Source of the DNA: Azolla caroliniana | Lineage: Eukaryota > Plantae > Polypodiophyta | Direction: 5' to 3' | DNA length: 64,000 nucleotides | Assembly: GCA_043228905.1 (NCBI GenBank) | Contig: JBHGNT010000017.1 | Coordinates: 9,672,001-9,736,000, forward strand | Shown here: piece after piece, positions 1,241 to 30,463 of the stretch | Layout of the letters: the number at the start of each line of letters is the position of its first letter | How positions within the stretch are numbered: position 1 is the stretch's first letter | Made by a program: the position numbers and the translations under genes | Notes under the pieces: model-generated | Seen by the model: only the letters and a program-made list of their open reading frames with translations | Told to the model about the DNA's origin: nothing | Databases searched by the model: none

Positions 1241-1299
1241 TTTTTTATATAGAACATGTTTGTTATTTTATTAGAACTTGTTGAGAATCAAGCTCAACT

Positions 1300-1970: not shown

Positions 1971-2075
1971 TCCACCCCCACCAAACCGCGCATCCACCGG
2001 CATGCGCCAGAGACGGGTAGATACCGAAGAAAACCGGCTTCACTCGTCACTCTCCGATTCTTCGCCGGGCCCGAA

Positions 2076-5037
2076 CTAATCGTCGTCGTCGCTCTCGCTC
2101 GCCAGCTCCGCCTCGTCTTCGAACTGCTTCTTGAACGCTTTGATCCGCTTCCCGGCCACCGGCACCGCTAACAGTGTCCCGACGAGTTCCACGAGGTGGT
2201 ACGTGCCGTTGTCATTCGCACTCGTCACCGTGTAGGGCCCGAACCATCTCCTCGCGAACTTTTGCACCGCCTTGTGCTGATTGTCGAGGCTATTGTCGTA
2301 TACCAAGACCCAGTCACCTTCCTCGACCATCCTTGGTCGCAACCAGTGCGAACGGTTGAACCGGGCCTTGTTCCGTTCCCTTGCCGCCCACAGCTTTTCC
2401 TTCGCCCATTTCATGTCCTCCGGCCTCCACTCGAGTTCCGAATCCGTGCTGCCAACAACTCCTCCCGCCTCATCTCGTCCTTCCAATCTACCGCCGCCCA
2501 CGAAGAAACCGTCCGTTCCACCGGCATGATCGGCTTCTGTCCATACATTAGCTCTGCCGGCATAAACCCTGTCACCGAACTGTGCGTAGTTCGGTCCGCC
2601 CATAGTGCGTAAGGAAGGAGCCGCGGCCAATTCCCGACCTGCCCTCCGCATGCACACACCAACGCCTTTACGATTGGCCCGTGCCACGTTCTACCTTCCC
2701 GTTCGCCTCCGGATTGTACGTTGTAGTAAGGGAGAGTTTGACCCCTAGCCAGTTGAACAACTCCTCAACTTCCTGCGCATCCAGCTCTCCCCGGTCCGCC
2801 ACGATCTTCCCGACGCACTCATATCGACACACTACCTCTTCGATCAGGAACCGGCATACCGCCGCGGTTGTCTTGTTCTGCAGTGCACGGCCTTCCACCT
2901 GGTTCGTTAAATCTTCTCGTGCAAGCACCAAGTATCGCACCTATCCTACTCCCATCGGCATCGTCACCAAGTCTACCATCCACTTGAAATGGACTGTAGG
3001 CGGGTAGGTCGGGTGTAGCTCATCCCGATGTCGGACTACGGGGTGCATTTGACAGCTTTCGCAAGTCGTTACGAACCGATGCACATCCCGGTACAGCCTC
3101 GACCACCAGTACTTCAGCTTCTCAAATGTGGCCCACGTTCCGCGGTGCCCGACCCAAGGACTCTCGTGAAATGTCGCCAGTAATTCCTCCCGTTCTTCTT
3201 TCTTTGCCACTACTCGGAGTGGGATACCGTTTCTTTTCTTTGGGTGCCTCCATATGCACCCGTCCCGTAGGAAGAATCGGTACGCCTTCTTCCGTACCCG
3301 GCTCGCCTCTTCTCTCGTCCACGTTGCATCCGGCGTCATCACCCGTAGGAACCTCCCGATTTCGAGCCACTCCCCGTCGTACCTACTATCGTCAAATTCG
3401 TTAAGCGTCGGACTGTCCCCTTTCCTCGTCGTCACATTAGCCAACCCGAAGAAGTCCTCGCTGACTTCTTCGTCATCCGAAAGCATGCCGTCTTCGTCGT
3501 TCAACCTTGCTCTCGAAAGCATGTCGACCATGGCGTTATCCTTTCCGGAGATGTGCCGTATCTCCGGGTTCAGGGACTTAACGTACGCTATCCACCGAAG
3601 CATTGCTAGGTCCCTGTCGGCCTTGACTGCCGAAACGATACCCTATAGTTCGCGCTTGACTTGGGCGTATCCTCGCTGCCGCTCGCTCAATACCTTCGCC
3701 CTGAACCGGATCGGGAACCGTGCACCATCCTCGTCCTCCTGGTTGATCACCCACCCAATCCCAATCGGGCTCGTGTCCACCGTCACGTAGATGGGGACCC
3801 CCTTACAGTAAACAGCTTTACGGAGAGCTTGCACTATCGTAAGCGCCTCCTTTAGTCTCCGAACCGACTCCGTGTGCGCCGTTCTCCACTCAAAGCTACA
3901 CCCCTTTTTCAATAGTCCGTAGAGGGGTTCCACGACATGCGCGTAGTGTGGGATCCAGATGTGGTAGAACGCGCATGCACCCAAGAATCTGCGGACCTCC
4001 GTAACTGACCCACAATCGTTCCTCATTGTGGAGATGGCCTCTACCTTTGCCGGAGACGGTTTCCTACCGTAAGGCCTGCACAGGTGTCTGACCACCAAGA
4101 TCTCCGACTGCTCGAACGCCGATTTTTCTCCGAAGAAGGTCTGTCGTGCGCTCTCGAGCTTCTGCAGCACCTTCTCACAGTCGTTGATGTGGTTCACAAC
4201 GAACCTCCGACATCCGTCTGGCCTGACAGTGTCATCCACATCTTCCACCGGACACCCCTTTATCGGGATGTCATCCAAGAATGGCATGGTGATGTCCGGG
4301 ATGCAGTCCCTCAACACCTTGTTCATTGCGTTCACCATATGCGCCACCGAATTCGTCCCGCCTTGTGGTAGGGTACACATCCGTACTAGGCTGAGAGGAG
4401 TTCGCATCGTCGTAATATCCCTACTCTCCACGGCTAGCTGGAACTGGTCGTACCCCGAGTATAAATCACTGACCGAATAGATCGACCTTCCAATGAAGGC
4501 CTCCACGAACTCGTCTATGGTCGGTTTGATTCCTACATTACGGATGGTCACCTTGTTGATCGGTTGCAGGTCCTGAATGAAGCGCAACGTGCCATTCTTC
4601 TTCGGCACCGTAAACCACCAATTCGAATACGGGGTACTCGACGGTTCGAGGATGCCCATCTCCACCTTTTGCTTTAGAAGCTCCATCAACTTCGGGATGT
4701 GAGCTCTCGGCACCAGAATTGGTTTGAGATTCCACGGTACATGCGGTACCATGAAGATCACCATTGGTTCGAAGATCGTCGGGTCCACGCACCCAATCTC
4801 CTCCGGCGAGAACGCGAAGGCTTTCCCATGCCTTCCAAGCATTCTCCGAAACATGTCCTCCTCTGCCGACAGTAGGAAGTCACCCCCACCGACCTTGAGC
4901 TCCCGTTGCGTTATGTCGGTGAACCGGTGCCCTATGCCAGCCAGATTTCGTACACTGGGGTCCGACGCGACCCCTTTTATCCGCTCCTCGCTGTCCTCCG
5001 GCAAGGGTGCCGCGACTGGCCTCACCTTCCGGTCCAC
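2076..5037 (-). pseudogene. Gypsy pol: reverse transcriptase, RNase H, integrase (broken by stops/frameshifts)
   Basis: ORFs 3643-5037 (RT-RH), 2941-3603 (RH end, integrase zinc finger), 2668-2940 and 2076-2687 (integrase core, WFGPY motif). Confidence 0.9.
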
Positions 5038-5051
5038 AGTCTTGTACTTTG

Positions 5052-8000
5052 TGTTGGCCGATCAGAAGAGCAAGGACAAGTGGGAAGGCGGAATCGGATC
5101 GGATAATAGGAAATAAATAATAGTAGAATTATTATTCGGAGGGACGGATCCGGTACAGTTGTACCGATCCGGATCCGGACCGATTCGGATGTCGGTTGCC
5201 TAAGCGCACCGATTGTAACCTTGCCGGATGCCTATAAAAGGATCCGATGATTTGTAAAGGGGACGAAAAGTAATACAATAGTAATTATTGCGTGTTTATC
5301 TGTATCTCGTATTGTTTACCGTCTGTGCTTAATTGTAATCATCTTACGCGTGTAACCTAGCATCCAATCCTTACCACCCCTTTGGAGAAGTGTCGGATAG
5401 ACACCTGTGTTGAGGCTAGTCCGGCCAGACAGACAACACTATTTTGGCGACCACGATGGGATCGCCGACGCTCCACCACACACAGAACCAGAGCAGGCGG
5501 CAGCATCGATCGATATATCAGAAGTCACGGAAGGAGCGGTGCAGGCGCTCACGGGGATAAAAGCAGGAGAACTTCAAACAATCGAAAACCCTTCAAGTGA
5601 AATCCTGTTCGAATATTTCGGGGAGTACTCTATCAGCAGCAAGGCGTATCGAACGCAGGGCGGAGAGAACCTGCTGTTTGGAGAAGTGGCCCGCGCCATG
5701 ATGGAATACGGATTCGTGAATCCCCGTCCCCCAGCCATAGCCAAGTACCGGGCAGCGTTCTTAATAGCAGCGTACGAAGGCTTACAAATAGACTGGCTCC
5801 ATTTCATAACCGAAGGATTGAAGGAGGCCATCAAAAATCTTGTGGAAGGAAAAAAGCCATGGGCCGGGATAGCACAATGGCTAACGGTGTTAGTCCCACT
5901 GGTGCTCCCCATCACACAAAAGAAAAGAGGTCGGCAGGAGACGACGCCGAAAAAGGTCACAAAGCGCCGACAGATTTTGGAGAAACACACCCCCGGATGG
6001 ACCCAGCAAGAAGCAGAACAGCAGGGGGAAGGACCATCCCGACAGCAACAGGAACCGGCAACAAAGGCAAAATCGGCAGGTAAAGGCAAAGGGAAATCGG
6101 CCGAGGAGGAACCGGTAGCGCGCAAACCAATCCATATAACGCTGCGACGGCCGGAACCGGAACCAGAGGTCTTTATACAAAAGGTCCGTCTGGTAACCGC
6201 ACCGGAGGAGGAAGCTGAAACAGAAGACTCATCCGAACCCCTGGTAAGACTCCCAGCAAGACAAGGTCGGGAGAAACGGGCGAAAGGACCGGCTCCACCA
6301 GTGGACAGAACTCAGCAGAGGGCGCAAGGACCATCTCCAGTAGCCGAGGCGGAAACAGCACCGGAACCCGTACCCAGGGAAGCAGCACCGACACCGGTTG
6401 GGCCGGACTTCAGAGAACCGGTCATCCTAGAGAAGAAGAAGGAACAAGCGTCGGAGCCAGAGCCAGAGAAGAGGCCGGAAAAACAGCCTGAGTTAAGTGA
6501 GCAAGGCCACCCCGACACCGGAAGAACAAAGCCACAATGGCTGAGATGGCTTTCGGAGCAGTTATCGGGAGTAGCGGACCAGTTAGAAAAAGAAGAAACG
6601 TGTAGGCAACAGCTGACGCATACAACAACTCAGGAGTTGGTCGTGCTCCGAACACAGATCGAGGAAATGCAAGAGGAGCTGTTGCAGGCAAGGGAAGGAA
6701 TTCAACAAGCAAAAGTTGTCACCGAGCCGGTCGGGACAACAAGGAAGCAACCAGAACCGGTAGCCTTGCAAACCGGCCCTGAGACCGAAAAAATAATAAA
6801 AACCTTACGAGAGGAGTTAAAAGCTCAGGAGGCATTAAGGGAAAGAGAAAGGGAGCAGCGGAAAGCGGTGGAGGACGACAGAAGAAAAATGGAAGAAGGC
6901 CTCCGGAAAGGTCGGGCCGCTAATGACCGACTGCAAGAAGAAAAAGAGAAGCTGCAAAAGGAGAAGGACCGACTACGTCGACATGCCGAGCAAGAGATAG
7001 AACGACTGCAGGAAGAACTCCGACAACAGAAGGACCGGGACGATCGGTTAAGAGCTCAGGCAAACCGACGCCTGAAGCAGAAGACGGAGGACTTCGACCG
7101 TCTCTACCGAGATCACAAGCAGGCCGAGTCGGACAACAAAAAACGGGCAGCAGACTACGACCGGCAAATAGAGAAGCTGAAAGAACAGCTCAAAGAGACC
7201 CGATTAGACCTGGCTAAGGCGATGGATGAGGTCAGTGCCAACAAGGAAGCATTGTCGGCGGAAATAGCCCAAGCAACGGAGAGAAGGAAGGAATTAGAGG
7301 CGCTAAGGCGGGAAAAGCTGGACCTGACCAAGATCAGGAATGAAGAAAAGGAAAAATCGACCTTCACGATCAGCAAACTGCAAAGTACCTATGAAAAGCA
7401 GAAAGCGGATTACGAGGCCCAGGCTCAGATAATGGCCGACATTATAAAACGGGCAAGGAAGGAAAAGCAGGAAGCTTATGCGCATGCTAAGGCAGGGGTT
7501 GACCGGATCAAGCTCATCATGTCAGGATAGAGTACCCGAGCTCAGGCAAGCATCAACGAAAGTACGGAAAAGCTATGGAAGGAGTGGTCACAACAGGCAG
7601 CCGAGCTGCAGACACTCCGAGCGGATGCCGAGAATCGGAGGAAGACCGGTGACAAGTTCTACAAGATGGATGAGGAAAGTATCGTCGCCATTCGGGAAGA
7701 ATTGTCGGAAGATTTCTACACTTTAGCGGAAGAACATCTCAAAGAAATCTGAGGGTTGGATGACGGGCAGCTCGCAACTCAGTTGGAGTTGGAGAGATAC
7801 GAGCAGGACCGGTTACGACAGGAAGCTAAGGGAAGAACGACGCCAACCACTATTGGTGAGGGAACGCGACCGGCTGAAGATGAACCAACCGACACCGAAC
7901 AACCCCGACGAGGAATACCCGAAGACGAACTTGAAGAAGAGCAGGAGCAGACCGATGCCGGAGAAGAAGAAGAGCTGAGACCGGAAGACACCAGAGCAGA

Positions 8001-8714
8001 GGAAGGAGGCATATCGAGTCGACTAGTCGAGACCGGAGAAAGCGACACCGGTAACAGAACAGAGCCAGGAACGGAGGGAGAACAGGAAGAACCCGGACGA
8101 AGCGGTGAGGAAGCACCAACACCACAGAATCAAGCAGAGCCGGAGCAGCAAATTTTTACGGAACAACCCACCCAACCGGAGGTCGGAGACCAGGCAGGCA
8201 AGGAACAGGAACAGGAGGAAGGAGCACCACTTGACACCATCGAGCAGAGTGTGCTCGATATTTTGGAGGAAGACTGAGGCCGGGAGTGGATTCGAAGTGC
8301 AAGGCACTTTCCCACGAGCGTGCCATGTGTTGGCCGATCAGAAGAGCAAGGACGAGTGGGAAGGCGGAATCGGATCGGATAATAGGAAGTAAATAATAGT
8401 AGAATTATTATTCGGAGGGACGGATCCGGTACAGTTGTACCGATCCGGATCCGGACTGATTCGGATGTCGGTTGCCTAAGCGCACCGATTGTAACCTTGT
8501 CGGATGCCTATAAAAGGATCCGATGATTTGTAAAGGGGACGAAAAGTAATACAATAGTAATTATTGCGTGTTTATCTGTATCTCGTATTGTTTACCGTCT
8601 GTGCTTAATTGTAATCATCTTACGCGTGTAACCTAGCATCCAATCCTTACCACCCCTTTGGAGAAGTGTCGGATAGACACCTGTGTTGAGGCTAGTCCGG
8701 CCAGACAGACAACA
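5052..8714 (+). mobile_element. Non-autonomous LTR retroelement nested in the Gypsy pol region
   Basis: 387-bp TG..CA LTRs 5052-5438 and 8328-8714 (about 4 transitions apart). Perfect 5-bp TSD CTTTG (5047-5051 / 8715-8719). PBS TGGCGACCAC at 5445 (tRNA-Arg-like). No gag, PR, RT or INT motifs seen inside. Confidence 0.93.
5407..8277 (+). pseudogene. Long charged coiled-coil 'extra ORF' of the nested LTR element, one frame with two in-frame stops
   Basis: ORF 5407-7530 and ORF 7756-8277 are in the same frame, separated only by TAG 7528-7530 and TGA 7750-7752. It has a globular N-terminal segment (..AYEGLQIDWLHFITEGL..), a P/E-rich linker, an E/K/R/Q heptad region and an acidic tail. The true start codon is unclear. 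Confidence 0.7.
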
Positions 8715-9013
8715 CTTTGTATCCACGCGGGCCGTCCGATCCGACCCAATCCTTTCCTCGAAGTCCACGATGACTTCGTACATTCCCATCGAACTAACCG
8801 GAATGGTCCGGTCTTCTCTAAGGTCTTCACCGATCACCTTTCGCAACTCGCCCAAGGTGTCGTCAAAGGAGACCGCCTCCACGGCGCCGCTGATCTCTTC
8901 GTCGGGGGAGAGGACTCTGCATCCCCTGAGCCGCTCCTCCGCTCGCTTCCTTTCCCGGCCACTGACGCCGACTATAGTACAACCTCCGTTTTCGGAGAAC
9001 CAAAACTTCCTAC

Positions 9014-11218
9014 CTATTGTACATGTGTGGGGTTCTTCCGGTACATCCGGACTAGCGCGGCCCCACACCTTGATAGCCCTCTATAATAATACCCTCGGTT
9101 GTCGCCGCCGAGGGTCTCGCGATTCCTCTCATGGTTCGGACGTACGGTCATGAATTGGATGGAATGTCGACCGTCCTGGCTCTTGACGCGCAAGTACGCC
9201 GAACCGTTGTCCAGCACCTTCGTCTCCATGCATGTTGCCGTAATGTATGGTTCGCCGAGAATCACCGGGTGCGAGGATGTTTCCTGCACGAAGAAATGTT
9301 GATTTATCTTGACGTCACCGACCTTTACGCGTATATTCGGGCACGCACCATGCAGCTCCTCCGTAGCACACGTCGCCGCGCGTATCTTCCACCCATGCTT
9401 GGTGTTGATCGGCCATTTACCCCTCTTGTAGAAATCCATGGACATCAGGTTGATTTCGGATCCATGGTCTACCAAGGCCACCACCCGTTCCGGAACGTCG
9501 TCGATCCGCACAGGGGTTTCCGTAGTTGCCCTGGCCCAATGCGACTTCGCATAGTGGGTTTCCGCCAACTCGTCTTCTAGGGCCGCGTCTTCTAAGTGCG
9601 TAGTCTGCACCTCCACCGGCTTCTCTGGTTCTGGCTCCGTCGAGAGCCTCTTCCGCTTTACCATGTCTACGATGGAGTCGTGGAACTCCCTCTTGGCGAT
9701 TCCCAGCACCTCCCACAACGACAGCTCCACTTTACTGTCGAGGATCCGCTCTTCAAGGACCTTCTGTAGGTCCGTTGCTCTCTCGATTTCGGTGCTCAAC
9801 CGAAACCCCGCCTGCTTCTTTCCATCCGGCGCGCTTGGGTTGCTGGCACCGGTCGGTTTCAGTCCGAACTGGGTCTCATCCCTCTGCGGGGGACTGACCC
9901 CCCCGGCCTTTCTTGCCCGTTTGTCTTCCACCAGAACCTCCTAGTTCTGGCAAGCGGCTTCTACGAAGCCCGTTTTCTCTTCGACCTGATCGTCCCATCC
10001 GGTGACCTCCTGGACCCGCTATTCCGCGCGGTCCGCCTCTTCCTTCTTCAACCGAACTCCGGAGAGGCCTTCTAGGACTAGCGGCCAGAATCCGGAGTCC
10101 TTCACCTTCCGGGTCTCATCACCCCCGACCCGAATTCCCGCTGACACTGAGTAGTTAACGACTTCTATGTGTCGTGCCGCGGCCTCTTCCATCAACCTCT
10201 TCATTCCGTCGCACCCCGTATTTAGTTCTAGGGCTCTCCGGGTCTCGCTCGCGTGCACCCGCCCGTTCCAGAGGTACACCACGTTGGTCCTGAGCGCGTC
10301 GGCGAAATCCGCGCAATCCTTCCGAATGTGACCAATTGCGTCACACCACATGCACCGCTGCCCAGCCGGCGGCCTCCGGTCGCGAGGTTATTCGCCGTTG
10401 TCTCTCCGTGCATGTGTGATCTGCAAGTCGCGCACCATCTGTGTCAGCTCCTCTAGAGCCGCTCCTCCAGATGGGCCTCTGACCATGTCGTTCGATGTCG
10501 GCCCCGACTCCAGCCAAATTCGGGTCTCTTCCTTCCTACAGGCTGGCACCGACACTGGCTCCTCGAGCCTCCTCGCCGGGACCGGCCCTGACCCCGACGA
10601 GCTTTCGTCGCTCCAATCGCGCTGCTTGTCGGAACGGCTGCAGACCCGTTTTACCACGGCCCAATCTAGCGTGAGCCCTTCGTCCGTTTCCAATAGGGGA
10701 CCCACCTTTTCCCTATCAAGTGCCTCCACCGACTTAACAAACAATAGTACTCAACTCGTTTTGAGCACGGTCCGGTCTAGCGTCGACAGTCGCGCGAACC
10801 GTTTTTCGAACTCTTGGAGGAGCGCCAACGTGTTCCTCCCCTTTCCGGGGCTTTCCACCCACGCCATGAAGTCCCGCCTCGACAGCCGAAGCGAGTCGTC
10901 AAACCCGTACTTCTCGAGGAGTTGCAACTCGAACTCCTCCCAAGTCTGGCATATGGCCAACACCTCGAGCACCTCCGCGTGGATGCCCGACGTCACCACC
11001 CGAGGGAATCCGAACAACCGCCTGTCCACCGGGATATCCCTCATGATCATTTCAGCCCGGTAAACCTCCAAATAACTTGTGGCGTCTTTCCCTCCGAACC
11101 GGCCTATAGTGCCGACGATCGATTCAATGGCTCTGTCGAGGGTACCCGTCCCCTCACGAGCGCTTACCAGCCAGTCGATGGCTACCACCATTGCCTCTGC
11201 TAGCTCCGATCCCCTCAT
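9014..11218 (-). pseudogene. Gypsy gag and aspartic protease
   Basis: Gag (IGRFGGKDATSYLEVY), CCHC knuckle, protease DHGSEIN..VILGEPY; interrupted by stops. Confidence 0.85.
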
Positions 11219-11239
11219 CTTTCAACTCCTTTGCCACCT

Positions 11240-11258
11240 ATTCACGTCGGGTTCACCA
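11240..11258 (-). promoter_or_regulatory. Primer-binding site complementary to the tRNA-Trp 3' end
   Basis: + strand ATTCACGTCGGGTTCACCA matches the recalled 3' end of plant cytosolic tRNA-Trp(CCA); it lies 4 nt from the LTR edge. Confidence 0.8.
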
Positions 11259-11262
11259 AAGA

Positions 11263-11945
11263 TGTCGCGTTGTTACGCGCGTGCGTGTAGAAAGAGTCGG
11301 GACCACGGGGGCCTTGAATCGAGGAGCGAGAGAGAAAGAGAAGAGAAGAGAAGACTTGCAGATACGCAAAGGGAGAAGGAAAGAGAAAGGAACGACACAC
11401 TTAATTACAGTAACAGTCGATTACAATATCCAAAGATTGCAAACTCTGACGATTACAACCGGTAAGGCGGCGATGGTCCCGACACGAGGATCCTACTCAC
11501 GCACACAGACAGAACACACTCGACTCAAAGAAACAAAAAGGGGAGAGCCTCTGCTGGAAGCACACGGGCTGTCAACGAAGCAGAGGCAGCGAACTCCCGA
11601 CACCCATAGAGACCGACGATCGGAGGAGAAGAGAGAGCTCGGCACTCCGTTCTGCAGCAGCACTTCGTCCTCGCCAACGCCCGATCCCCTTTCTTCCTTC
11701 TCTCCCTCCTTAAATAGTTCGCAAAAAAAAGGGACCGTTCTTCCCTAGTCAAATCGCTTTATTCCATGTCCCTTTCGACAGAGATACGCATCAATCTTCT
11801 AATAAATATGTACTACCTAGTATTTACATTAGCCGACCTAATTATGAATTATGTCCACAATATCAATTCTCGCATCCACCTATGTGAGCGCCGGTTCATG
11901 TGCCTTTTTCTCCGATTCCGCCTATGGCCGGTTTTCTTCACAACA
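11263..11945 (-). repeat. 5' LTR of Gypsy element
   Basis: TGTCG...CAACA ends; adjacent to the PBS; matches 1300-1970. Confidence 0.9.
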
Positions 11946-13720
11946 CCGTGCGGAGAGACAAATCCGAGAGGTTACCGGATGGGACTATTCAGTTGTGGAG
12001 AAGTCGAGCTTCATGGAAGTTGCATGCCAGAACTACAAAGTTCTGGTGGATGAGAAGCGAACCGAAAAGGCTGGAGGAGTAGGCCTTGCAGGGAGGTATG
12101 ATACCCGGAGCGGGCCAAAGAGGGTCAAAGTCGAGACAAAGTTTTGGAGGTTGGCCTTAGAGGGAGGACAACGTCACATACAAGAATCAAACCTCAAACC
12201 TCCCATGCCATAACCAACGAACAAGATACTTATATGATAAGACATGTGTACATTTAGAGTTTTGTTGGTCTACAAATCTTTATAAAGTTTTAGAAACTTC
12301 TAGAGTGCACATGCAATGCTCACGAACATGTATAATATGGTTGTTCATCATGATCCTAATTATGGTGAACAACACCAGTTACGGAATCATGAGTACAATT
12401 CATTCATTCTCTCTCAATATATTGTCTTTTGTCTCACATTCCTTGTCTCCTTTCTACCTACTCTAACTATATGTGACATGGATCTCTAACCCTCGCACTT
12501 AGAGTCCATAGATAATGTTAACTTTTGTAAATCAAGGTATGCAAAAGCATTGTGTGTGTGAGAGAGAGTGAGCGTGTGAGCAAGAGAATGAATTAGAGAA
12601 AACAACCAAAAATGAAAAGTACACATGGGGAGATTACATCTTATGAACAAAGATGAAGATGAATTATATATATATTTTAATCAACTCATACAACTGCATT
12701 TAAGGAAGATGAGTAGAAAGGGAAGTGGTTGTACATAGGCAAATTCTTAAGTTTAATGAAGGAGAATTGTTTGTGACTAAAGAGGGGACACGTAGGATTT
12801 CAAAGAAAACATTCAAGTATTTCCTAAGAGGCATGTATCTTTGGAAGTCACTAGCAAGAGATTGTGAACACCTTAGAGAGTGGTTTGTAATAAGGAAGAT
12901 TCGAGGACTCTAATATTTAACTATGTTTGACTTTCATGAAAGTCCTTGGGTAGGCCACAAGGATATATGGGCAACAATCTTAAAACTAAAAGAAATATGT
13001 TGGTGGCCAAGAATGTAAAGAGACATTGCTCATTTCGTGGAGACATGTGAAAGCATTAGACGCACTCAAATGTATGACATAAGGATTAGTTACACCTAAC
13101 CTACCCATTGGCCATACATTTAAAATGGATGTTGGACTTACTATCCGTGATTATGGTAGTGGGTTAGATGAAATACTTGGTGCTGCCAAGGGAATATCTC
13201 GTGAACTAGGTGGAAGGAAAGGCTTAGTCTGATGTCAATGTACAAATTCCTCGTAGTAGAAGTTATATGTTGACATAGGTGTGTGAGGAAGATAGTGGTA
13301 AACGCAGGAGAATTAGATGCTAATGAAGCTAGATAGCTTTTCTAGCAATTAGGGGTGAAACTATCTCTTACAACCCACTTACAACCCGAAGGCCAACGGG
13401 AAGATAGAGAGAGGACATAGTACCACAATTGATGTTATTGTAAGAGCTTGTGCGAGGAAAGTTAAGAGATTGACTTCGACTATTATCTTATGCCTTGTGG
13501 GCCAAAAGAAGAACTCACAACTCAATCATAGGGTTTTATGTTGATTGAGCTCATGTTCAAACAAAAGCCAGTAATACCCATAGAGGAAATGATCAGATCA
13601 TAGGTGGCAATGTCGTGGGAGAATGAGATGCGCGGAAAACTTATGGTGGCATAGATAATAGCACTTGAGAGGTGACCAAAAGACTTAAAGTTGGCAATGG
13701 ATAGGCGATGTGGTTCATGA
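11946..13720 (+). mobile_element. Older, heavily decayed Gypsy remnants of the same lineage, with LTR-like fragments
   Basis: RAERQIREVTGWD..VACQNY is homologous to the gag-pol linker at ~10000(-). Integrase remnants FHESPWVGH, KWMLDL, YNPKANGKIERGH at 12.9-13.6 kb. Confidence 0.75.
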
Positions 13721-14467: not shown

Positions 14468-14571
14468 AAACCCTAATCCTTCGCTAAGTTCTTCTTCTTC
14501 TTCTTCTTCTTCTTCTTCTTCTGCTATATACATACATACATACAATTATTATTATTATTATACGCTATATA

Positions 14572-14606
<35 letters not shown>

Positions 14607-14615
14607 AAACCCTAA
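14305..14615 (+). promoter_or_regulatory. Promoter/5' UTR region of the DCD-TENT gene: G-box, (CT)n tracts, two telo-boxes
   Basis: CACGTG 14305-14310; AAACCCTAA at 14468-14476 and 14607-14615, each preceded by a (CT)n tract. Confidence 0.5.
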
Positions 14616-14948: not shown

Positions 14949-15469
14949 ATGGTTGTTGCGAAGTACAGTAAGATTCCCTCATCCCTTCCCATCATCATCA
15001 ACAATAACAACAACAACAACAACAAGAGCCACAGCCACAGCCACAGCCACAGCGAGGCCACTAAGACGATCGACCACAACACTACCATCAACTTATTCGC
15101 TGGCTACATATTTGTTTGCAGTAACGATACTCTTCCAGATCTCAAGCGAAGAATTTTTGGTCAGCTCTCTGCCCCATTCAAATCCTTTGTTTCTTTATTG
15201 CAAGAACTTTTATGTCCATGATTGATGAACTCCTTATAGACTTGAAACGGTGAGTGATAATGACTGGCTATGGCAAGATCAACGGAAACGGAGCGATTAA
15301 TATAAATGTATCGATTTCCTCTGCTGATTACGCTGCATAATGTTACATTCCATTTTTGTTCACTTTTGCTAATAGCAGAAGGAAGTCGTTAGAAAAGAGT
15401 ATCTATTTACATAATCCAAGAAAGATATCAACTCATTTGCTAAACTAACTTGACGTTGTGGGGGGAGAC

Positions 15470-15535
<66 letters not shown>

Positions 15536-18500
15536 AATCTGAAGATTTTTCTTGCTTCTGAGCCCCCACCATCGCATTTTCTTAGGTTGCTTGGTTTACA
15601 AAGGTCAACCTGTTGACCAGTTAAATGTTTAGCGAAACATTTGATTTTCTCCTTGTTTTTCATTGTTTAGGATTACCCGCCCATCATGCAGAGTCGGTGC
15701 GAGCCATCAGAAAAGGGATGCCACTGTTCTTATTCAATTATTCAAGCAGATGTTTATGTGGCGTATTCGAGGTATTGTTCTTTCCTAAACCATTCTTTTT
15801 CAAGTTCTATTTACTTATTACTGAATATTTCTAATTCTTTTCCAAGTTTTTTGAGGTCAATCTTCTTTTAAAATTCATTATACTCTTAACAAGATATCAT
15901 TTTGATTGCTAATGTCCTTTTATGTAAAATCTCCAGGCTGCAAGTGATGGTGGATTCAATATAGATCCTCATGCTTGGGAAAATGCTGACCAGACAAGAT
16001 CGCGTAAGTCACCAGTGTCAAGGTACCCTGCTCAGGTAGATTTTTGTTTGTGTATTTTGAGTTATTCTCTTTCATTATCCATGATTTGTATGCTTGAGTT
16101 ATGGCAGTTGATGTTACATGATTAGTCATACTTATCATGGCATCTAGCATCCATTATGTGCTTAACGTCATTACACTTGTTTGATTAACATAGGCATGTG
16201 TCATTAACATCATCACTTATGTTTGCTTGATACCGGGCTATATGATTAATGCCAAGATTGTTACATGATTAGTCATACTTATCATGGGATCTAACATCCA
16301 TTATGTGCTTAACGTTATTACACTTGTTTGATTAACATGGGCATGTGTCATTAACATCATTACTTATGTTTGCTTGATGCCGGGCTATATGATTAATACC
16401 AAGATTGTGCATGATACTCAATCATTAGATTCACATCTCCCATCAGTACTTCTGGTTAGCCTAATATAAACATCTGAATGTTGGATTAACATGAACACCC
16501 GAATGTTGGATTACAGGTGAAAGTACGCCTGCGATTTCAGAGGCCACCATTAGACGAAGAGACTTTTCGGCCTCTTCTCGAGCACTTCGAAGGTCGCAAG
16601 TTCAGATTGGAACTGACAGACCACCAGGCAAATCTTATTATTATATTGTGATTATCTTGGCATTTCTTAATATTCACATCAAGGTTATATATGTTGCTTT
16701 ATGATATTTGACATGGTTTTGTGACTGGACAGGTACAACAACTCCTTAAGTTGTTTCGAGTTCCTGATACAGAGTTCTTTGGTGAGAAAGTGAGGGTATA
16801 TTCCAATCCCATAGGTGATCCAGATTCACCTTTCTCTGCTTTCAAATCTGATTCAGATTGTCACAGTGAGTGTTCAAGCAAAGGAACCTACACTGGGGAG
16901 GATGAGTGTGGGGCTGAAGAAGCTCCCTCAGAAGACAGAGTCCTCACCGACAATAAGCAACTATGTTTTGCACAATTTGATGATAATAATCATTTCTTGA
17001 GTGAGAGTTTGAATAGGATTGTATTGAACGTTGGGAATTTGAATCACAGTGAGATTCCAGAAGAAAGTCTTAATATGATGGTTTATGGTGCAATTCAAAT
17101 TCCAGATTCAGAGAAATCTTTTGAACCCAATGAAAGTCACATGCTTTGCTTGAATGTGAACAGTCCTGCTGTTAGCAGTGTTTCTGTTGATTCCAGTCAC
17201 AATGTTTCATATCTTCCTGTGGGCATGGACATGTATAATAATAGTAATGCATGTATGGTACCTGCACAAATTCAGCCTACATTTTGTGAAAGCATGATTT
17301 ATATCCCTATATATCCTTCCAGAGAGTTCATGGGTCAATCTTCGCATGTGATGCACAAGAAAGTAAGCAGAATAGAAGAAAGCAAACAGTTTTCTGGTTC
17401 ATGCATCTCTACAAAACAGTGCACTGATGATGTTAGTGATGAGAAAATAAGGCACTTTCCTCTAGAACCTGTAAGGGTATTGTCGCCGTTCCTTTTGTCA
17501 CCAAATTTGCACTTCATTACTTCTCGACAGCCCTTGATGGATCACATTGAGGAACCAGAAAGAATTCAGACTAGTCATGTTCCAACCATTTTGATGCCTT
17601 CCATGCCAAGAATTGTGCCTATGATTGACTTTGAGTTACTTCACTTTCAGATATTGCAATTTGCCAGATTGACTCGGCCATCTTTAGAGACACTGCTTTA
17701 TGTGGAATCTGCAATAGATTCTATCAGATCTTGTGTCAAGAAGCTGTGGCCTAATGCTGATGCGGAGGTTAGTCTCTTATGTTCGCATTTTACTGCAGCT
17801 AAAGTAAAAATTTTACGTCATGATTTACGAGCTCACTTTTCTTATTTCTTCATATTGATCTTGAAAACTTGTGACACCTGTATTGCAGGTGTTTGGTTCC
17901 TTTGCTACTGGTTTGTGTTTGCAACATAGTGATATTGACATAGCAATTGTGGATGCTCCTTTCTTACCAACAATGGTCAACATGTCTATGTCACACGCTT
18001 CATCTTTTCTATTGAGGGAACTTGGATCATACTTAAAACCCTTGGAATGGTGTGAGAGCTATAATGTGGTAGCCATGGCATCAGTACCTGTGCTGAAATG
18101 TCAATATCAGCCCATTGCTAATTCTCAGATAGCAGATTCTTCACTGCATGTACAATCAATTTCCATTGACATTACAATTGGTGGAATAATGGGCACCACT
18201 TATAAGTGGAATCAATCACATAGAATTGGTGGACGTGTGAACCAGCATACTGGAGGTGCCGCTCGTGAATATGTCCTTGAGAAAATCCAAGAGTTACCTG
18301 CTCTAGCACCACTTGTAAGTTATCATTGGAAAATAAAACATTGATTGTTTATCAAATTTTGAACCATATAAATTTATTTATAGCTTCTTAGTTTTGTTTT
18401 TTCTTGCATTCTTGCTTTGTACATGCAGGTGTTTCTGTTGAAGTCATTTCTGCACCATAAGGGTCTCAGTAATGTTTATTTGGGTGGTCTCGGATCCTTC

Positions 18501-19335
18501 TCCCTGACTCTACTGGTTACATTTTTCTTGGAAGTAGGTTTTCTGTTCTTTTGGTTCTCTTTTCCACATGTTTATTTGAATGACCTGGATTATGCTCTTG
18601 CAGCATGTGGATTTTCCTGTTATACCCTGCTTCTCATCAAAGGATTTAGAGATGGATAACCTGAAAAGTGGGATGAACTACAAATCTACACTTGGTGAAT
18701 ATTCCATTAGGAGAGCAGCAAAAACTATTGAGAGCATCTTAGCACTCTGGGAGTCTTCTTCATCGCATTGCTTGGGAAATTTACTTGTGGAGTTTCTTAA
18801 AATGTTTGCTTATGAAGATTTATCCAGCCAAAAAATTTTCTTGAAGGTAAAAAGATTGCTTTGTTTTAGAAAAGATTATAGAGATGGTTCCTTTATGTTA
18901 TTTTAGGAAGTGAATATACATTTGATGTTTCCATTTGTATTTTCTGTGCATGAAGTTTGATGTGTCATTGAACAACTTGTGTTATTTAAAGGGGCTTGAT
19001 GGCCATCCTGGTGGGAAATGTAGACGTCGGAATCGACACATACCATTGTGGATAGATGACCCTCTACGCCCTGGTGTTAATGTAGGTGCTGGCTCATTCG
19101 GCGTGTGTCATGTACAGGTAAATCCTTTTTTTATCCATTAAAAAAAGGAAAGATGTTTTGGCTGATTTATTTTACTATTAGGAAAGAACGAGAGGATGTA
19201 CATTATTTCAAACATTACGATCACATCTTTTTGCAGGACTCGTTTCGTGAAATGTTGCAGGTTCTTTCCTACGGGCAGTTTCCTGGAACACACCTAGATT
19301 TCAGCAAGATGGGTTGTCAAGACACCTATGTTTAG
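14949..19335 (+). CDS. DCD-domain / TRF4(TENT4/PAPD5)-like terminal nucleotidyltransferase fusion protein, ~851 aa, 10 exons
   Basis: Phase-consistent exons 14949-15159, 15671-15771, 15937-16035, 16517-16627 (GC donor), 16733-17767, 17889-18314, 18429-18533, 18604-18846, 18992-19117, 19237-19335. DCD motifs: GYIFVCSNDT..RIFGLP, GMPLFLFNYS, VFEAASDGGFNIDPHAW, SRYPAQV, KFRLEL. NTase motifs: VFGSFATGL..SDIDI, third Asp in SIDIT, GGLGSFSLTLL, LGNLLVEFL, PAP-assoc LWIDDPLRPGVNVGAGSF. Confidence 0.88.
16112..16408. repeat. Intronic tandem duplication, 2 x ~147 bp
   Basis: TGTTACATGATTAGTCATACTT... starts at 16112 and again at 16259 with few mismatches. Confidence 0.85.
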
Positions 19336-21129
19336 GCAACTGCATCAGTTAAAGCCAATTACTTCTTCTTCAAGCTGATATGAGAAGTTTTGCAGTATTT
19401 CTTCTTTTTGAATTCTGCATTCAGTAACCTGAAAGAAATGATCTCTAATGGCATGAAGTTTAGTAGAAATGTTCTGGTTCTGGTTCTGGTTCTGGCCTTT
19501 TGTTATAGAGGAACTGATTATGGAGCCAGATATGAAAGGAGTACTTAAGGAAAGTAGTGGATAATTCCATTACCACATGTTGTACAGTCACAATGTTTAT
19601 TCCAACACTCTTAAGAGGTTAATTGTCTCTGAGAGGTTCAGCAGAAGCAGTTTTGTTTGTTTTTTTTTAAATTCTTACGGACAGTCAAGTCAGTCAGAAA
19701 GAGTTCAATGTAAATCTGTACAGAGGATTGTAGAGTGTGCATATAACACATCTCACCTTGTCTATTTTTACTAGCTCAAGGCAAGCTAGTATAATAGCAT
19801 TGATTGAGAACTTACAGGACATTTTCTTTTCTATGACCTAAAACAATTTTGGGGTTGAAATTGAATACGAGCTTTCCCAGGCTGATACAGATCTTAGTCA
19901 GCAGCAACATGGCAAAGTGTTAGTCCTCTTATTCCTGGTTAACATCTTATGAAGATATTCATCAGCAGCAACATGGCAAAGTGTTAGTCCTCTTATTCCT
20001 GGTTAACATCTTATGAAGATATATATAGATAATAGATGTATATTCCAGCTTGGAATGGCTTTTCATGTAAATGAGATTATCATAGTTGAGAAAAAAACTC
20101 AACTTGACACAAGAAATGCTCTTGTGACATTGAAACAAATTTGTGCATAGAATTGGACAGGTTATGCAGATGATGCTCTACATATTTTGTGAGGTGGCAA
20201 TGTGCCCCAAGTGAAGTTGTCTTATCTAACTTGTGCATGGAGTTGGATAAGTTATGCAGATGATGCGCTATGTATTCTGTGACGTGTGCATGTGCCTCAA
20301 GCAAAGTGCTCTTTCTGTGGTAAAGACACAAGCTCAGTAGAATCAACGGGAAAACAGTTCATTGTAAAGAGCAACAACACTTACAATGAACAGATCATTG
20401 TGAAGTGAAAGGATAGATGCTCAAGCATGTGGAAGGTGCAAAATTTATCCAATGGAAATCAATATGGCATCTAGGAAAATTTAACCGAATGTATTCAACA
20501 TAGCCTGTGGCATTCATTAATTGATTGTATTTCAGCATATCCTCAGTTGAAGTTCAGGGTAGCCTGTGTGGGAAATATTTGAGGTTTGCCTTGTTTCAAT
20601 AGTGTAAGAAATTGTGGACACTGATTCTTGTAATTAATTAAAGCTCTAGACAGACTAGAACTGAATAAATAAAATATCAAATGTAGTCATCAGATTATAC
20701 ATTTCTCTTTTTGAAATTCTGGTAGACATTTGTATGGTATGTGCAAGCACACATCCGTATACGCATCTGCACACGCACACGCACACGCACATGTGATTGT
20801 TTGAATGATGTGTGCATTATAATTTTTTGTATTCATGGTATATGTGATTTAAACTTATCATGGAATTTAGGTTTTTGTAAACAGTTTTTTGCACTTCTTA
20901 TTTGTGAGATTGGAATGTGAACTTTCAATTCTCGTGAATAATTCTGATGGATTGCTAAAAGCATATCTTATTTACAGTTTCAAAGATCCTTAGGCCTGTT
21001 GAATTTTTTGATGTTGCACAATAGTGCACAATGCTAATGAATGAGTAATGAACTTACTGTTTTCTTGTTAGTGATGGAATTGCAATGCTTTATTTGAAAT
21101 AATTTGATTTCAACACTGATTAGTATAAT

Positions 21130-25122: not shown

Positions 25123-28100
25123 GTTTTTGCATAAATTGGCTAAGTAGACCGATTAAATAACTCAGGTCGGGTCAGGTAATGGTTAGATAGATTAAGCTGC
25201 CAATTAGTTGACGATACTAAGTCGGCACAGAATTTGTTGTTCTTGAATCAACAACGAGCTTGAGATTTCAATCGAGAGGGGTTGACATAGGTGTGCATTC
25301 AGTAATCCCGAATTTGTAGAGTTAGTTGAGAATGTAGTGTCGTTGAGAGATCAATATCCCGATTGGTGTCTGAATTACTTCTATACCAAGGAAGTAATGG
25401 AGCTCATTCATGTCTTTCATTTCGAATCTGCCAGATAGGAGCGTTTGGGCCTTATTAATGTTGGTGAGATCCTTTCCTCCGATGACCAGATCATCCACAT
25501 ACAAGATGATGACAATCGGGTTGTCCAGCTCGTTTCGGATGTATAGGGAGTTGTCCGATTTCGACATTCAGAAGCTGATTTGGTGAAGATATTGGGTGAT
25601 CTTCGAATGCCAAGCATGAGGTGCTTGCTTGAGTCCATATAATGGCTTCTTGAGTCGGCAAACTATTGTCAGATGTTTGGTTGATTCGATACCGAGTGGT
25701 TGAATCATGAACATCTCCTCTTCTAGTTCGCCTTGTAGGAAGGCGTTCTTCATGTCCATTTGGTGGACGTGCCACCCTTTTGCAGCTGCAAGGGCAATGA
25801 CTGTCCGAACATTCATCATCTTTGCCACCGGGGCAAAGGTTTCCTTGAAATCAACTTCGTGTGTTCGCTACGAGTTTGTCCTTGAAGCGATTTACCGAGC
25901 CGTTAGCATTATATTTTACTTTATATATCCACATGTAGCCGATCGATTTCTCCTGTGGAGAATGGGGGATGAGATCCCATGTGTCAATTTTGCATAGATC
26001 CTGCATTTTGTCGTTCATGGCTTCGATCCATCGTGGATCCTTGGCAGCCTCAAAAAATGTTTTTGGTTCTTAGACAGTCGTCGCCTTCATCATAAAGGCA
26101 TAATGGTATGCCATATACTCATCTAGCCGAATCGGCTAACCAAGTTTTTCTCTCAGGTGGAGTGATAGAGCTTCTGACTCCATTTGTCGGATGATTCGGA
26201 TATCCAGGCCTTCAAACTCACTATCAAGAGAGTGAGTCGACTCATTGTCAATCGATTCCTCGTATTACGACATTTTGGCCTTTCCTTTGTCTAGCTTCGA
26301 AGTTGGCCGAGATGTGCTTTGGTAACTTGGGGGCTCTTGTGGTCCACTCAGCCTTGTTGTAAGAGGACTTTCTTCGAACATGTGCTCGAGTTGATCTTTG
26401 TTCTCTAGTTCTTTTTTGGCCAATTCCGGGTTGACTAGGGTTGGAGTCGGTGTTGTCTCTAGTTCGTACTAGGATGCCGATTCGTCGAAGACGACGTCCC
26501 GACTCACTCGAACTTTTCGGGTAGATGGGTTGTAACATTTGTACCCCTTTTGTTCAAGTGAGTACCCTACGAGGATACATTTCTCCAACTTCAGGTCGAG
26601 ATTTTGTCGCTTCTCGTTAGAAATATGCACTTAGGCAATCGAGCCGAATATCTAGATATGTGATAGATCCAAGTTCTTTCTGAAAAACTTCTCATGAGGG
26701 GTTACATCGTGTACTCCAAAGGTTGTACACCTATTCATGAGGTAGACATCTGTGTTGGCCGCTTCTGCCCAGTACGATTTCGGCGGGTTCTTCTCGTTCA
26801 TTATTGCTCTTGCCACCTCTACTATATGCTGATTCTTTCGTTCAGCTACTCCATTTTGTTGAGGTGTGTGTCGGCATGAGAATTCTCGTCGAATTCCTTC
26901 CTTTCAAAGATATGATGTGAAATCATCCGAGAAATACTCCTTGCCTCCATCCGATCGAAGGCATCAGACATGCTGACTTGTGGCTTTTTCGATGTTCATC
27001 CTGGGTTGGACTCAGCCACAAACACAGGTGTCCGTACAGGAACACTCCTCCAAAGGGGTTGTTAGGACATGGATGCTATCCAGTTTTTATCCGATTCCAC
27101 TCTGACTATCTCTGGATGTCTTCCGGATTACTTATTGTGCAATTAATTAATTATCACACGCGTAAGATTAAGAATTAAAGCACCGAACGACAAGTACAAA
27201 AGGACTAATGATTAGGAACAGAAACACGCTTATTTCATATTACTTTCGTTAATCATTACATCGATTCCGGACCCTTTTATAGGCATTTGGTAGGGATTAC
27301 AAAATGGTGCCTTACCGACTACCGGCTATCAATCGGTGCGGATCCGGATCGGTACAACTATCCGGATCCGTCCGTTCCTATAATATTACTTAACCAATAA
27401 TTATGCTACTAATCTAATATTATATTTCGACTCATCCCCGTCCGGATCATACTTTAGGCCAACATTCAAGTTCGTTTTTAAACCTTTGGAAGTGTCTGAA
27501 CACTTCACTCTTCTTCTGCGTAGGATAGATCCAAACATGCTTCGAGAAGTCGTCGATGAACGTGACATAATATCGGCAACCACCGAATGTTGCCGTTTGG
27601 GTTGGTCCCCACACATCTAAATGTACTACATACAGGATCCCTTTGCTCACATTCCTCTCTTTCAGGGATGGTTGTCGGTGTTGTTTGCCGAATTGACAGG
27701 CTTCACATGCACCTACTATCTCTTTTTCGGTAAATGTAGGGAGTTCGATTACGACTCCTTTCGACTGCATTCCTTTAAGCTTTTGGAGATTGATGTGGCT
27801 AATTCGCTTGTGCCACAATTTCAAGTCGGTTTCGACTTTGAGGCCTTTGGCGAACATGACCGACTTCACCTCGTTTGATTCGAGGATGAACATTCGGCCT
27901 TCTCTTCGACCATGAGCGACTAATCAACCTTCTTTCTCATTAAAGCACCCCTCATTATTGAATCACACTTGCATGCCTTGTTCGACAATTTAGCCTACTG
28001 AGACCAAATTTTTCGTGATGGTTGGGACATGAAGTACATTCTTTAGGTAGGTTTGTTTTCCATCGTTCCCAAATGAGACATTTCCGATATGCCGAATCGA

Positions 28101-29580
28101 ATGGGTTGTGTTGTCTCGGTTTCGACATAGTCGTGTCGATCGGGCATTCTCAACTCTCGGAAACAATTTTCATGGGATGTCACGCGATTGGATGCTCTTG
28201 AGTCTACAAACCATACATCGTCTGAGGAAGAGATGTTTGTCGGATGTTGTGCCGACATCGAATGTGCGTTATGCCTCATCATGAACATCCTACCATGATC
28301 TTCATAGTCGGAATTCATTGCATAGTTCGTGAGTTGTCGATTGGTCAAAGCCGACTCTTGTTGCTTCTTTCGGCACTCCACTTCATCGTGGCCAAGTTTC
28401 CCACAGTACCCACATTCGATTGGGTTGTTGCGATGGCGCGGTCCTGCAGGATGGCTCCCCCTTTTGCCGAACTCCCTAGGATTGTTCCTATCGTCTTGCC
28501 ATTGGTGGGAGTTGTGTTCTCGGGTCGGCTGACCCTGTCGCCCTCGGCTGGATCAACCTCTATTTCCTCAGCCGAATCTTCTTCTTTCATCCGACTAGGA
28601 GTAGAGCATCTGACCATTTGGTGTGTTGCTCCTTTGTCAGGCATGATTTTCCTCTACCAGTAGTATAGATTGAAGGTGGATAAAGGAAGGAGGGTTCTCC
28701 CTTACGAGAATGGCCGATCTCATCGTGCCGAATCAAGGTGCCAAGACGCTAAGGTACATTTATTGACCCGAGGGCATCGCACAACTCCTTGATCTTCAAG
28801 GTATAGTTGGTGATTGACATATCCCTCTATTGCATGTTATTCAACTCATGTCGGAGTTAGAGCTTTTGTACAGTCGTATTGGCCGCAAAAATCTTCTTGA
28901 GATTGCCCCAAGCTTCTTTCGACGTTTTTGCCTCTCGAATATAGCTGAGCATGTGATCATGGACGCATGATGCAAGGCAAATACAACACACGACTTGCGA
29001 CCTGCTCCCAAACTGGGTAGTCGACGTGTGTTGGGTTGGGTTGCGTTTCATGAGCTCCCTCTATATAGCTCTAGTAACCTTATTCGACAAGGTATTGATG
29101 CTTGTACTCCCAAGATGTGAAGTTTGTTCCATCGAGCTTCTTTGTAGGAAGAGTGCTTCTCATCTGAATGTTCATGATGTCGATTTATATGGAGTGAGTT
29201 TTCGTTTTGTTGTTCTCTCGATGCGAACTGTGCAGGTTGCTGCTACATCAATCAACCGGTTCTTCGTGAACGTGGATGAGCTTGGATCAGGCTACCAATC
29301 GCTCTGATACCATGTTAAGAATGAAAGACGTAGGTGGTGTTGTGCAACGAAAGCAAGTTGTGTGTGTGAGAGAGTGCACATAAGGAAAACAGGGAGAGGT
29401 AGGGAGAGATCTTAGAACAAAGATATGATTACATCCAACAGTAACTAAGTTACAAACGGTTGGTATAAATACCAACTAGTCTAGGCAATTGTGCTTTCTA
29501 CTATTTACAAAACTAGCCTAGTATGTCCTCTGGCTAGTGTGAAACCATTTCATTTGGGAAGTTGAGTTTGATTCTCAACA
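25123..29580 (-). mobile_element. Ty1/Copia element, 5' portion (LTR-PBS-gag-PR-INT-RT), truncated before RNase H
   Basis: LTR 29313-29580 (TG..CA); PBS TGGTATCAGAGC (tRNA-iMet) 29301-29312; WFVDSRAS protease; VHLDVWGP integrase; HQMDMKNAFL and LYVDDL RT. Confidence 0.9.
26993..27464 (-). mobile_element. Solo LTR related to the LTRs of the nested element at 5052-8714
   Basis: TG..CA ends; TSD TTCGA/TTCAA; shares CGGATCCGGATCGGTACAACT, CTCCAAAGGGGT and AACACAGGTGTC motifs in reverse orientation. It interrupts the Copia integrase. Confidence 0.8.
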
Positions 29581-30296
29581 TAGGGACATGTGCCTAAGGA
29601 TTTTGAGGACTATGGCTTATATTGGTCCAATGTTAACAAAACAACATCCTCAGATCAATATAATATTAGTTAAATATAGCTTCATTAAACAATAACCATT
29701 GACTATCTCAATTAACTTTCCACACAATTATAATATTTGAATGAGGCCATTGACTATCTCAAGGATTGGGCGCATGCCATTCTATGCTTGAGGACATGTT
29801 TACCTTGGCTCTAAGGAGGCCAACATGGCGTTGCTTGTGAAACTAACACCACATGAATGTAGACAAATAATCCCAACAATTAGGATTGCACACAAGAGAG
29901 TAACTGCTAGCTAGCTTTGTATATTCACATAAACCCTATGCCTTGTGTTCAACCAAAATTATAAAAAATTATGTAGGCACAAAGATACTCACATAAAAAT
30001 GGGTCTATCTATTAGCCTTGTTATTGATCCGCTTGATGTTTTTGTTACACACCATATTCCCTCTATCATCATGCAAATGGACTTATCTGTAGCCAAATTA
30101 TTACTGTAGACAAGCTTGTACATAAATGCTCTATATTAGTTGAAAAGAGGAAAATGTTTTAATGAGCAATTTGTGAATTTTTAATTTTAACGAGGTTATT
30201 TTTTATCATAAAAAGTACCAAAAATGCTAATTCGAGTGACGAAAACAAGGAAAAATTTGCTTCAAAGGGGGAAAAATTTTGTGGGCCTTTTCAAAT

Positions 30297-30394
30297 GCAA
30301 CTAGGGACGTGACGATCCCTATCGTTGCTAAGGCTAATCCTAATTGGAAATGAAGAGAATTATTGATTGTATTGTAAAGTCCCTTATGCCCACG
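30297..30394 (-). pseudogene. psaB: Plastid psaB fragment (NUPT, ~100 bp)
   Basis: Translates [33 protein letters not shown], versus the recalled Psa[34 protein letters not shown]. Confidence 0.85.
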
Positions 30395-30463
30395 TAGAGG
30401 CTGAATACAGGGGCGCAACAGTCACCACATGTGAGGCCGTCTGGCTGAAACACATATTGAAGG

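Follow-up and report, generated by a model that had tools for sequence, protein, structure and literature searches.

The locus described here raises the question of whether a plant encodes a DCD domain and an RNA 3'-tailing enzyme on one polypeptide, and of what such a protein would do. The DNA analysed (hereafter the window) is a stretch of 64,000 nucleotides from the fern Azolla caroliniana (assembly GCA_043228905.1, contig JBHGNT010000017.1, positions 9,672,001 to 9,736,000 of the forward strand; coordinates below are those of the window). A first-pass annotation, made from the sequence alone, had proposed a gene at 14949–19335 (+ strand) in which a DCD domain is joined to a TRF4/TENT4-like nucleotidyltransferase. 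The fusion was found to be real and conserved, and it is apparently undescribed.

The gene model comprised ten exons from ATG to stop, giving 2556 nt that encode 851 residues plus the stop codon, with no internal stops; the unbroken ten-exon chain of the first-pass annotation therefore holds. Eight introns were GT-AG and the fourth (16628–16732, + strand, 105 nt, between the DCD and the linker exon) was GC-AG. All nine were skipped at their predicted lengths in contigs from four public runs. These runs were taken to be RNA by guess, none being recorded as RNA, though the skipping of introns at the joints is consistent with spliced RNA. The joint between exons 1 and 2 (15158/15670) was present in contigs X14 and X3, intron 4 was skipped in X3, X4, X5 and X6 (with a short side of 111 letters in the last three), and transcript contigs extended beyond the stop codon to at least 19900. 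Two single records from four further public runs, X4 (3230 nt) and X6 (3771 nt), each ran from exon 3 through exons 4 and 5 into the beginning of exon 6 and lacked the 105-nt intron. They were approximately 94% identical to the window, and their sources are therefore related species. Further contig records held a paralogue with both the DCD and the enzyme parts. The GC-AG junction at 16627/16733, which had been singled out for checking, was thus spliced in four runs and bridged from DCD to enzyme by single contigs. Location of both domains on one polypeptide was confirmed by X4, X6 and dozens of fused relatives.

The DCD domain (residues 49–187; 15093–16771, + strand) was delimited by the family profile, Pfam and the fold of a relative, and was complete across exons 1 to 5, as first annotated. 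Exon 1 (14949–15159) supplies the start of the domain after a short N-terminus whose Asn and Ser-His runs were not seen in the relatives read. The domain continues through exon 2 (15671–15771) and exons 3 (15937–16035) and 4 (16517–16627), both supported by gene model, Pfam and contigs, and ends in exon 5 (16733–17767; gene model and family profile), which also encodes the linker and the first helices of the catalytic module. In the Pfam scan that had been suggested, PF10539 matched exons 2 to 4 singly, exon 2 alone scoring above the curated cut-off (E 3.8e-09), and the nucleotidyltransferase was matched on exon 6. The FGLP, LFL and PAQV motifs of the DCD were present.

No solved chain was matched by sequence with the DCD profile. 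The fold was modelled for the DCD of a Selaginella-type relative (P0062; 57-row alignment, mean predicted local distance difference test (pLDDT) 86). This model matched the EVE structure 1wmm at Z 14.0 (root-mean-square deviation 2.4 A, 122 residues), then VcaM4I (11.2), Mmi1 YTH (11.2), YTHDC2 (10.5), YTHDC1 (9.9) and AtCPSF30 YTH (9.4). Counting these five, the fourteen fold matches below 1wmm (Z 8.6–11.2) were all EVE, YTH or ASCH proteins or carried no name, and the EVE/YTH likeness was recovered by two methods. The domain is accordingly modelled as a predicted PUA-like barrel of the EVE/YTH type, and its earlier assignment to that group was upheld at the level of the predicted fold. DCD had been tied to EVE/YTH at the profile level by Bell et al. 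(PMC7641849), and the matches of the P0062 model back that claim. 

Candidate pocket residues of the DCD are F70 (15156), W118 (15976) and Y134 (16024; all + strand). Among distinct fused DCD rows, 35 of 49 had aromatic residues at all three positions, as did 72 of 87 unfused rows; the aromatic triad is therefore a trait of the DCD and not of the fusion. Placed by aligned end points only (model 28–159 against YTHDC1 353–490), model residues F51, W99 and Y113 fall in YTHDC1 376–382, 424–430 and 438–444, ranges that contain W377, W428 and L439; this is a rough placement with no residue-level superposition. By YTHDF1 numbering, presumably only the first of the three DCD aromatics fits a cage site.

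Fused DCDs were nearest in sequence to the C-terminal DCDs of NRP-type proteins, with which they grouped loosely in the DCD tree (support 51/71). Trees in which NRP-type DCDs were nested in fused DCDs, or in which all fused DCDs had a single origin, gave approximately unbiased (AU) test p values of 0.28 and 0.16, respectively. Two or three tandem DCDs were seen in P0060, P0065, P0071, P0099, P0102, P0106, P0158 and P0159, which clustered apart in the DCD tree. The DCD match of P0053 was an artefact of its own inclusion in the profile; it had no Pfam match and was removed from the DCD counts.

The catalytic module (residues 472–840; 17624–19299, + strand, exons 5 to 10) was identified by the family profile and a match to yeast Trf4. 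Exon 6 (17889–18314; Pfam and alignment) carries the GS motif, D534 (17931), D536 (17937) and D613 (18168), and exon 7 (18429–18533; alignments) the GGLGS motif of the central domain. Exon 8 (18604–18846; gene model, Trf4 alignment and model) encodes a variable insert, a family-specific helix and the start of the PAP-associated region. The nucleotide-recognition loop lies in exon 9 (18992–19117; alignments), and exon 10 (19237–19335) runs to the stop codon. All residues sought for a Pol-beta fold were present (G522, S523, D534, D536 and D613), and exon 6 matched MTPAP-like_central (PF22600) and NTP_transf_2 (PF01909) in Pfam; the intact GS..DxD..D nucleotidyltransferase first noted is supported by both alignment and Pfam. 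In the family alignment the three catalytic columns were Asp in 45, 45 and 46 of 47 rows, the remainder being gaps in partial rows. The PAP-associated region that had also been annotated was recovered by alignment. It matched Trf4 residues 210–299, recognition loop included (independent E value 3e-09), but PAP_assoc was not matched on any exon scanned singly, and PF03828 was sub-threshold in plant relatives.

Against solved chains, the family profile matched Trf4 (3NYB) at E 1.7e-50 and Cid1 at E 1e-13, Trf4 also being the top fold match of the module. The ESM Atlas returned generic TENT clusters only (0.83–0.85). By fold and triad the fusion protein would be a class I non-canonical poly(A) polymerase, or TENT, with predicted tailing activity. 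At the position equivalent to Cid1 H336 the window protein has V806 (19076), and the 47 family rows have Val in 19, Ala in 15, Ile in 3 and Ser in 2. Asn was not among the five commonest states there, and the His that selects UTP in terminal uridylyltransferases (Cid1, URT1, HESO1 and TUT4/7) was absent from the family. The same position in 33 other TRF4-like rows was Asn in 13 and Arg in 11, and in yeast Trf4 it is Asn.

The two domains are separated by an acidic linker of 284 residues (188–471; 16772–17623, + strand), predicted to be disordered from the full-length model of a relative (P0003), in which the matching stretch had a pLDDT below 50. The first-pass annotation had described a poorly conserved linker of approximately 300 residues; a linker is present, but it is slightly shorter and carries short conserved motifs. 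A Ser/Asp-rich motif (approximately 16820–16906) was confined to fern rows. A second motif of approximately 12 residues, ending in DPAVNS, was kept in ferns, lycophytes and liverworts, with a worn copy in the window (17162–17179); no copy turned up in rows from mosses, algae or conifers. It is likely to be a docking site. A search for AIM-like motifs in 28 proteins gave matches in two only, both inside the DCD and none in linkers.

Relatives were collected by homology searches. Exon 6 as query returned 22 longer proteins, 20 of them with both PF10539 and PF22600, from Adiantum, Ceratopteris (five genes, paralogues), Selaginella and transcript-derived records. The catalytic region of Selaginella returned 54 matches, 45 with both domains, and added Diphasiastrum, Marchantia, Riccia, Calypogeia, Sphagnum, Ceratodon, Physcomitrium, Closterium and Spirogloea. 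Cryptomeria and Taxus came from the best 150 of 6816 matches of an index-free profile search across 1.84 billion representatives. Physcomitrium, Ceratodon and Marchantia paleacea were each found to have one fusion locus. The architecture search that had been proposed thus located the fusion in ferns, lycophytes, mosses, liverworts, Zygnematophyceae and conifers. The suggestion of a lineage-restricted system needs correcting: the fusion is not narrowly restricted, since it ranges from Zygnematophyceae to conifers and comparable fusions occur elsewhere among eukaryotes. Within streptophytes the gene is old, and it has multiplied in ferns. Among the matches listed in the homology searches, none was a named angiosperm protein carrying the two domains together. 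Loss in angiosperms is likely, though not proven, because the look-up by name covered only 20 of the new proteins and the trees excluded short fragments.

A quick tree of 62 rows placed the 19 streptophyte rows in one clade (Shimodaira–Hasegawa-like approximate likelihood ratio test (SH-aLRT) 100), and the window protein among fern paralogues (SH-aLRT 99–100). A single clade with six rows around long angiosperm TRF4-like proteins was rejected (AU p 6e-9). A single clade with seven canonical-looking TRF4 rows was not rejected (AU p 0.21), the two groups being separate in the best tree; the canonical label is our assumption, from a Chlorokybus protein and a motif. The enzyme tree contained no named Trf4, TRL or TENT4 row. 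The initial TRF4/TENT4-like assignment stands in so far as Trf4 is the nearest solved relative, but the family forms its own clade and orthology to TRL or TENT4 is not established.

A DCD also accompanied a TRF4-like module in three divergent records that appear to lie outside the streptophytes. P0072, from a Durusdinium assembly, combined a DCD, the transferase and an RRM, and the same architecture was seen in Mucochytrium P0113, with a weak DCD (E 6e-05) and a weak RRM; P0072 and P0093 grouped with P0113 in the tree. P0110 had a clear DCD and a TRF4-like module with N/D/H in place of the catalytic triad (27 cluster members), and from these residues the enzyme is likely to be inactive. It was encoded by one open reading frame (L002 5986–8862) beside RFC and sorting-nexin genes on a gene-dense eukaryotic contig of 57% GC, the source of which is likely to be a small marine alga. 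Tests of one against several origins of the fusion gave p values of 0.64 and 0.47, a single origin being neither favoured nor rejected, as long branches meet among the non-plant fusions. Other eukaryotic DCD fusions involve mRNA-processing proteins, CPSF30-like and CAPAM-like (PMC7641849).

In databases the fused proteins were labelled "DCD domain-containing" or hypothetical. Full-text literature was searched for DCD with nucleotidyltransferase or TENT4, and for plant NTPs in seed-free plants, with subscription papers and bioRxiv supplements outside the scope; the fusion was not described there, in agreement with the initial impression that it was absent from known architectures. The text and three supplements of PMC7641849, which exclude its Fig. 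13 on plant DCD architectures, make no mention of TRF4, NTase or nucleotidyltransferase. None of the four DCD architectures (groups I–IV) of Arabidopsis and rice includes a nucleotidyltransferase in the part covered of Tenhaken et al. 2005 (PMC1182354). Work on plant RNA tailing is based on Arabidopsis, with its ten NTPs, two of them TRF4-like (PMC13030794, PMC8894942). The section covered of a 2026 review deals with angiosperm NTPs only (PMC13030794), and for ferns and lycophytes the part covered of PMC5569507 treats HESO1 and URT1 only.

Compared with known systems, the window family shares with yeast Trf4 (3NYB), animal TENT4 and Arabidopsis TRL (At5g53770) the fold, the GS-DxD-D triad, the GGL motif and the recognition loop. 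It differs from them in its N-terminal DCD, its large inserts, its extra helix and its separate clade, and from Trf4 in having Val or Ala in place of Asn at the H336-equivalent position. The angiosperm TRF4-like proteins of 1506–1556 residues, which we take from their length to be orthologues of Arabidopsis MEE44/NTP9 (At4g00060), share the H-T-G motif and a similar recognition loop, but their Pfam lists contain no DCD and they are the long proteins with which a common clade was rejected. Plant DCD proteins (NRP, B2 and DCD-Kelch) have the same PF10539 domain with the same three motifs. In AtCPSF30-L, the heterokont Znf-YTH-DCD-KH protein and Schizosaccharomyces pombe Mmi1, a PUA-like reader is coupled to 3'-end processing or exosome decay; there reader and polymerase are separate proteins, whereas the window protein is one chain.

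The reading that is tentatively preferred, at a little under even chances, is that the DCD selects RNA, the TRF4-type enzyme adds short A-rich tails, and exosome decay follows. Yeast and animal Trf4/TENT4 reach RNA via Air/ZCCHC7; in Arabidopsis a clear Air1 homologue is missing, and the Trf4–Air–Mtr4 polyadenylation complex (TRAMP) is not reported in plants in the part of the source covered (PMC8894942). The DCD would then act as a built-in RNA selector replacing the Air/ZCCHC adaptor, and the linker would give the enzyme reach to the RNA 3' end. ATP would be preferred; the predicted product is a short A-rich tail at the 3' end of the RNA, and the tail would likely mark that RNA for exosome decay. 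A preference for A is likely but uncertain. In Cid1, H336N raises ATP use, and some assays show a shift toward poly(A) activity with H336A (PMC13702519). In favour of this reading are the fusion on single contigs and its conservation, the catalytic triad, the closeness to Trf4, the missing His, the EVE/YTH-like model of the DCD, the mRNA-processing partners of other eukaryotic DCDs and the RRM of P0072 and P0113. Silent changes also account for 13 of 16 coding differences within the DCD and the catalytic core but for only 7 of 26 in the linker and inserts (Fisher p 0.001), although this count draws on just 42 listed differences in relatives' contigs, in which orthologues and paralogues are mixed. 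A more specific form of the selector-and-decay reading, which is unlikely as a whole, holds that the DCD may read N6-methyladenosine (m6A) or 5-methylcytosine (m5C) in RNA, with the F-W-Y pocket lying where YTH domains have their cage, and that it directs TRF4-type tailing to the RNA so read. The fusion would then predate land plants and perhaps be shared with stramenopiles. Flowering plants would have lost it, and its reader half might be ancestral to the NRP stress regulators.

Several observations weigh against RNA selection followed by A-tailing. Other assays showed reduced Cid1 activity with H336L or H336A (PMC13702519), and the A preference is uncertain because Val, Ala or Ile replaces Asn and the effects of H336 mutants vary by assay. 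The linker showed neither an Air-like nor an MTR4-docking motif. Clade members without a DCD as recorded are Klebsormidium P0042 and Mesotaenium P0049 and P0052, where split gene models are possible, and the conserved DCD Trp is lost in conifer copies. Mmi1 has the YTH fold and keeps two cage Trp residues without binding m6A (PMC6356822). The only plant DCD ligands found to have been measured, those of Arabidopsis NRP, are proteins: CRY2, with a dissociation constant (KD) of 4.34 uM, and one from a fungus, with a KD of 0.19 uM (PMC13570309). RNA binding by any DCD domain was not found in the literature consulted on DCD. DCD terms gave no hit in the RNA-capture supplements PMC7226388, PMC4942612 and PMC5093948, files that are possibly partial or use other identifiers; in the supplement of PMC11177498 one DCD protein was detected, in a row scored "no hit".

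The protein ligands, the blank capture supplements and the loose grouping with C-terminal NRP-type DCDs would all suit a DCD that is a protein-docking module, as in NRP, on an ordinary TRF4-type enzyme in a stress, light or cell-death complex whose partners choose the RNA. This is on the unlikely side, given that the DCD fold is common to nucleic-acid readers, that chromist DCDs are joined to RNA-processing domains (PMC7641849), and that RNA binding is compatible with protein binding; the capture sets were poly(A) captures from angiosperms, in which the fusion gene appears to be absent. TENT4 enzymes also make mixed tails that protect RNA. It appears improbable that the DCD selects RNA for such mixed tails, or for tails rich in U or C, with protection or re-routing of the RNA as the outcome. 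In the family the residue that selects the base is small and hydrophobic, against Asn or Arg in other TRF4-like rows, and a disordered linker with no MTR4-docking motif fits a role outside TRAMP. This must be set against the missing UTP-selecting His and against mRNA tails ending in C or G, which make up less than 1–2% in 20 plant species, with no excess reported for seed-free plants in the part of the source covered.

A role in the pathway of poly(A)-less stem-loop histone mRNA, likewise lost in angiosperms, is very improbable and fails on Selaginella, where SLBP and histone mRNAs of the poly(A)-less kind are gone and yet an intact fusion (P0022) is kept. There is little to recommend a transferase that makes a nucleotide signal, or modifies protein or DNA, after the DCD senses modified nucleic acid. 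Such an immune-type sensor-enzyme would recall the prokaryotic DCD/EVE proteins of defence systems and the link of plant DCD proteins to cell death (PMC7641849), but all sequence and fold matches were RNA-tailing enzymes, with Trf4 first and no cGAS or OAS among the matches listed. Erroneous joining of two adjacent genes through the GC-AG intron has practically no standing: the donor of intron 4 is non-canonical and no contig from the closest runs covers the whole gene, but the splicing in four runs and the many fused relatives speak against it, and single contigs X4 and X6, running from DCD to enzyme, rule it out.

Around the gene, a Gypsy-type long terminal repeat (LTR) retrotransposon (approximately 1250–11950, - strand; RVT_1, RNase H and integrase zinc finger) ends 3 kb upstream; its LTRs are 96–98% alike and 9975 bp apart. 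Nested within it, between the protease-side and reverse transcriptase regions, is an element at 5052–8714. Its terminal repeats (TG...CA) measure approximately 390 bp and are 99% alike across 300 nt, and a duplication of 5 bp flanks it. Its open reading frames encode a charged, likely coiled-coil protein of 709 residues (5401–7530, + strand) and an acidic one of 174 residues, and neither matched Pfam. The motif AAACCCTAA, which we take to be a telo-box, had two copies only in the window (14468–14476 and 14607–14615), less than 500 bp upstream of the ATG. By chance 0.69 copies were expected and 15 of 100 shuffles reached two, and the copies are not independent because both lie in a duplicated CT-repeat stretch. 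Intron 3 contains a duplicated stretch of approximately 160 bp (16068–16400), seen directly in the sequence, and short duplications resembling it lie in the 3' flank near 19900–20020 and 20150–20280. Several broken copia-type elements, partly nested, occupy 27400–40200 (gag_pre-integrs, rve and RVT_2), and LINE-type reverse transcriptase fragments (RVT_1, - strand) lie at 49000–52000 and approximately 43700–61400. A gelsolin-repeat exon was found at 55814–56308; the LINE-type fragments are upstream of it, and a villin-like gene probably holds them within one of its introns.

Seed-free plants and conifers hold an extra, apparently undescribed class of TRF4-type proteins that is invisible from Arabidopsis. 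The molecular ligand of the DCD has been an open question since 2005, and the RNAs tailed by an enzyme tied to a DCD would provide a direct read-out; knockouts are practical in Physcomitrium, Ceratodon and Marchantia paleacea. If it is true that the DCD reads a modified base, it would constitute a new class of plant epitranscriptome reader, and the NRP stress and cell-death proteins would be recast.

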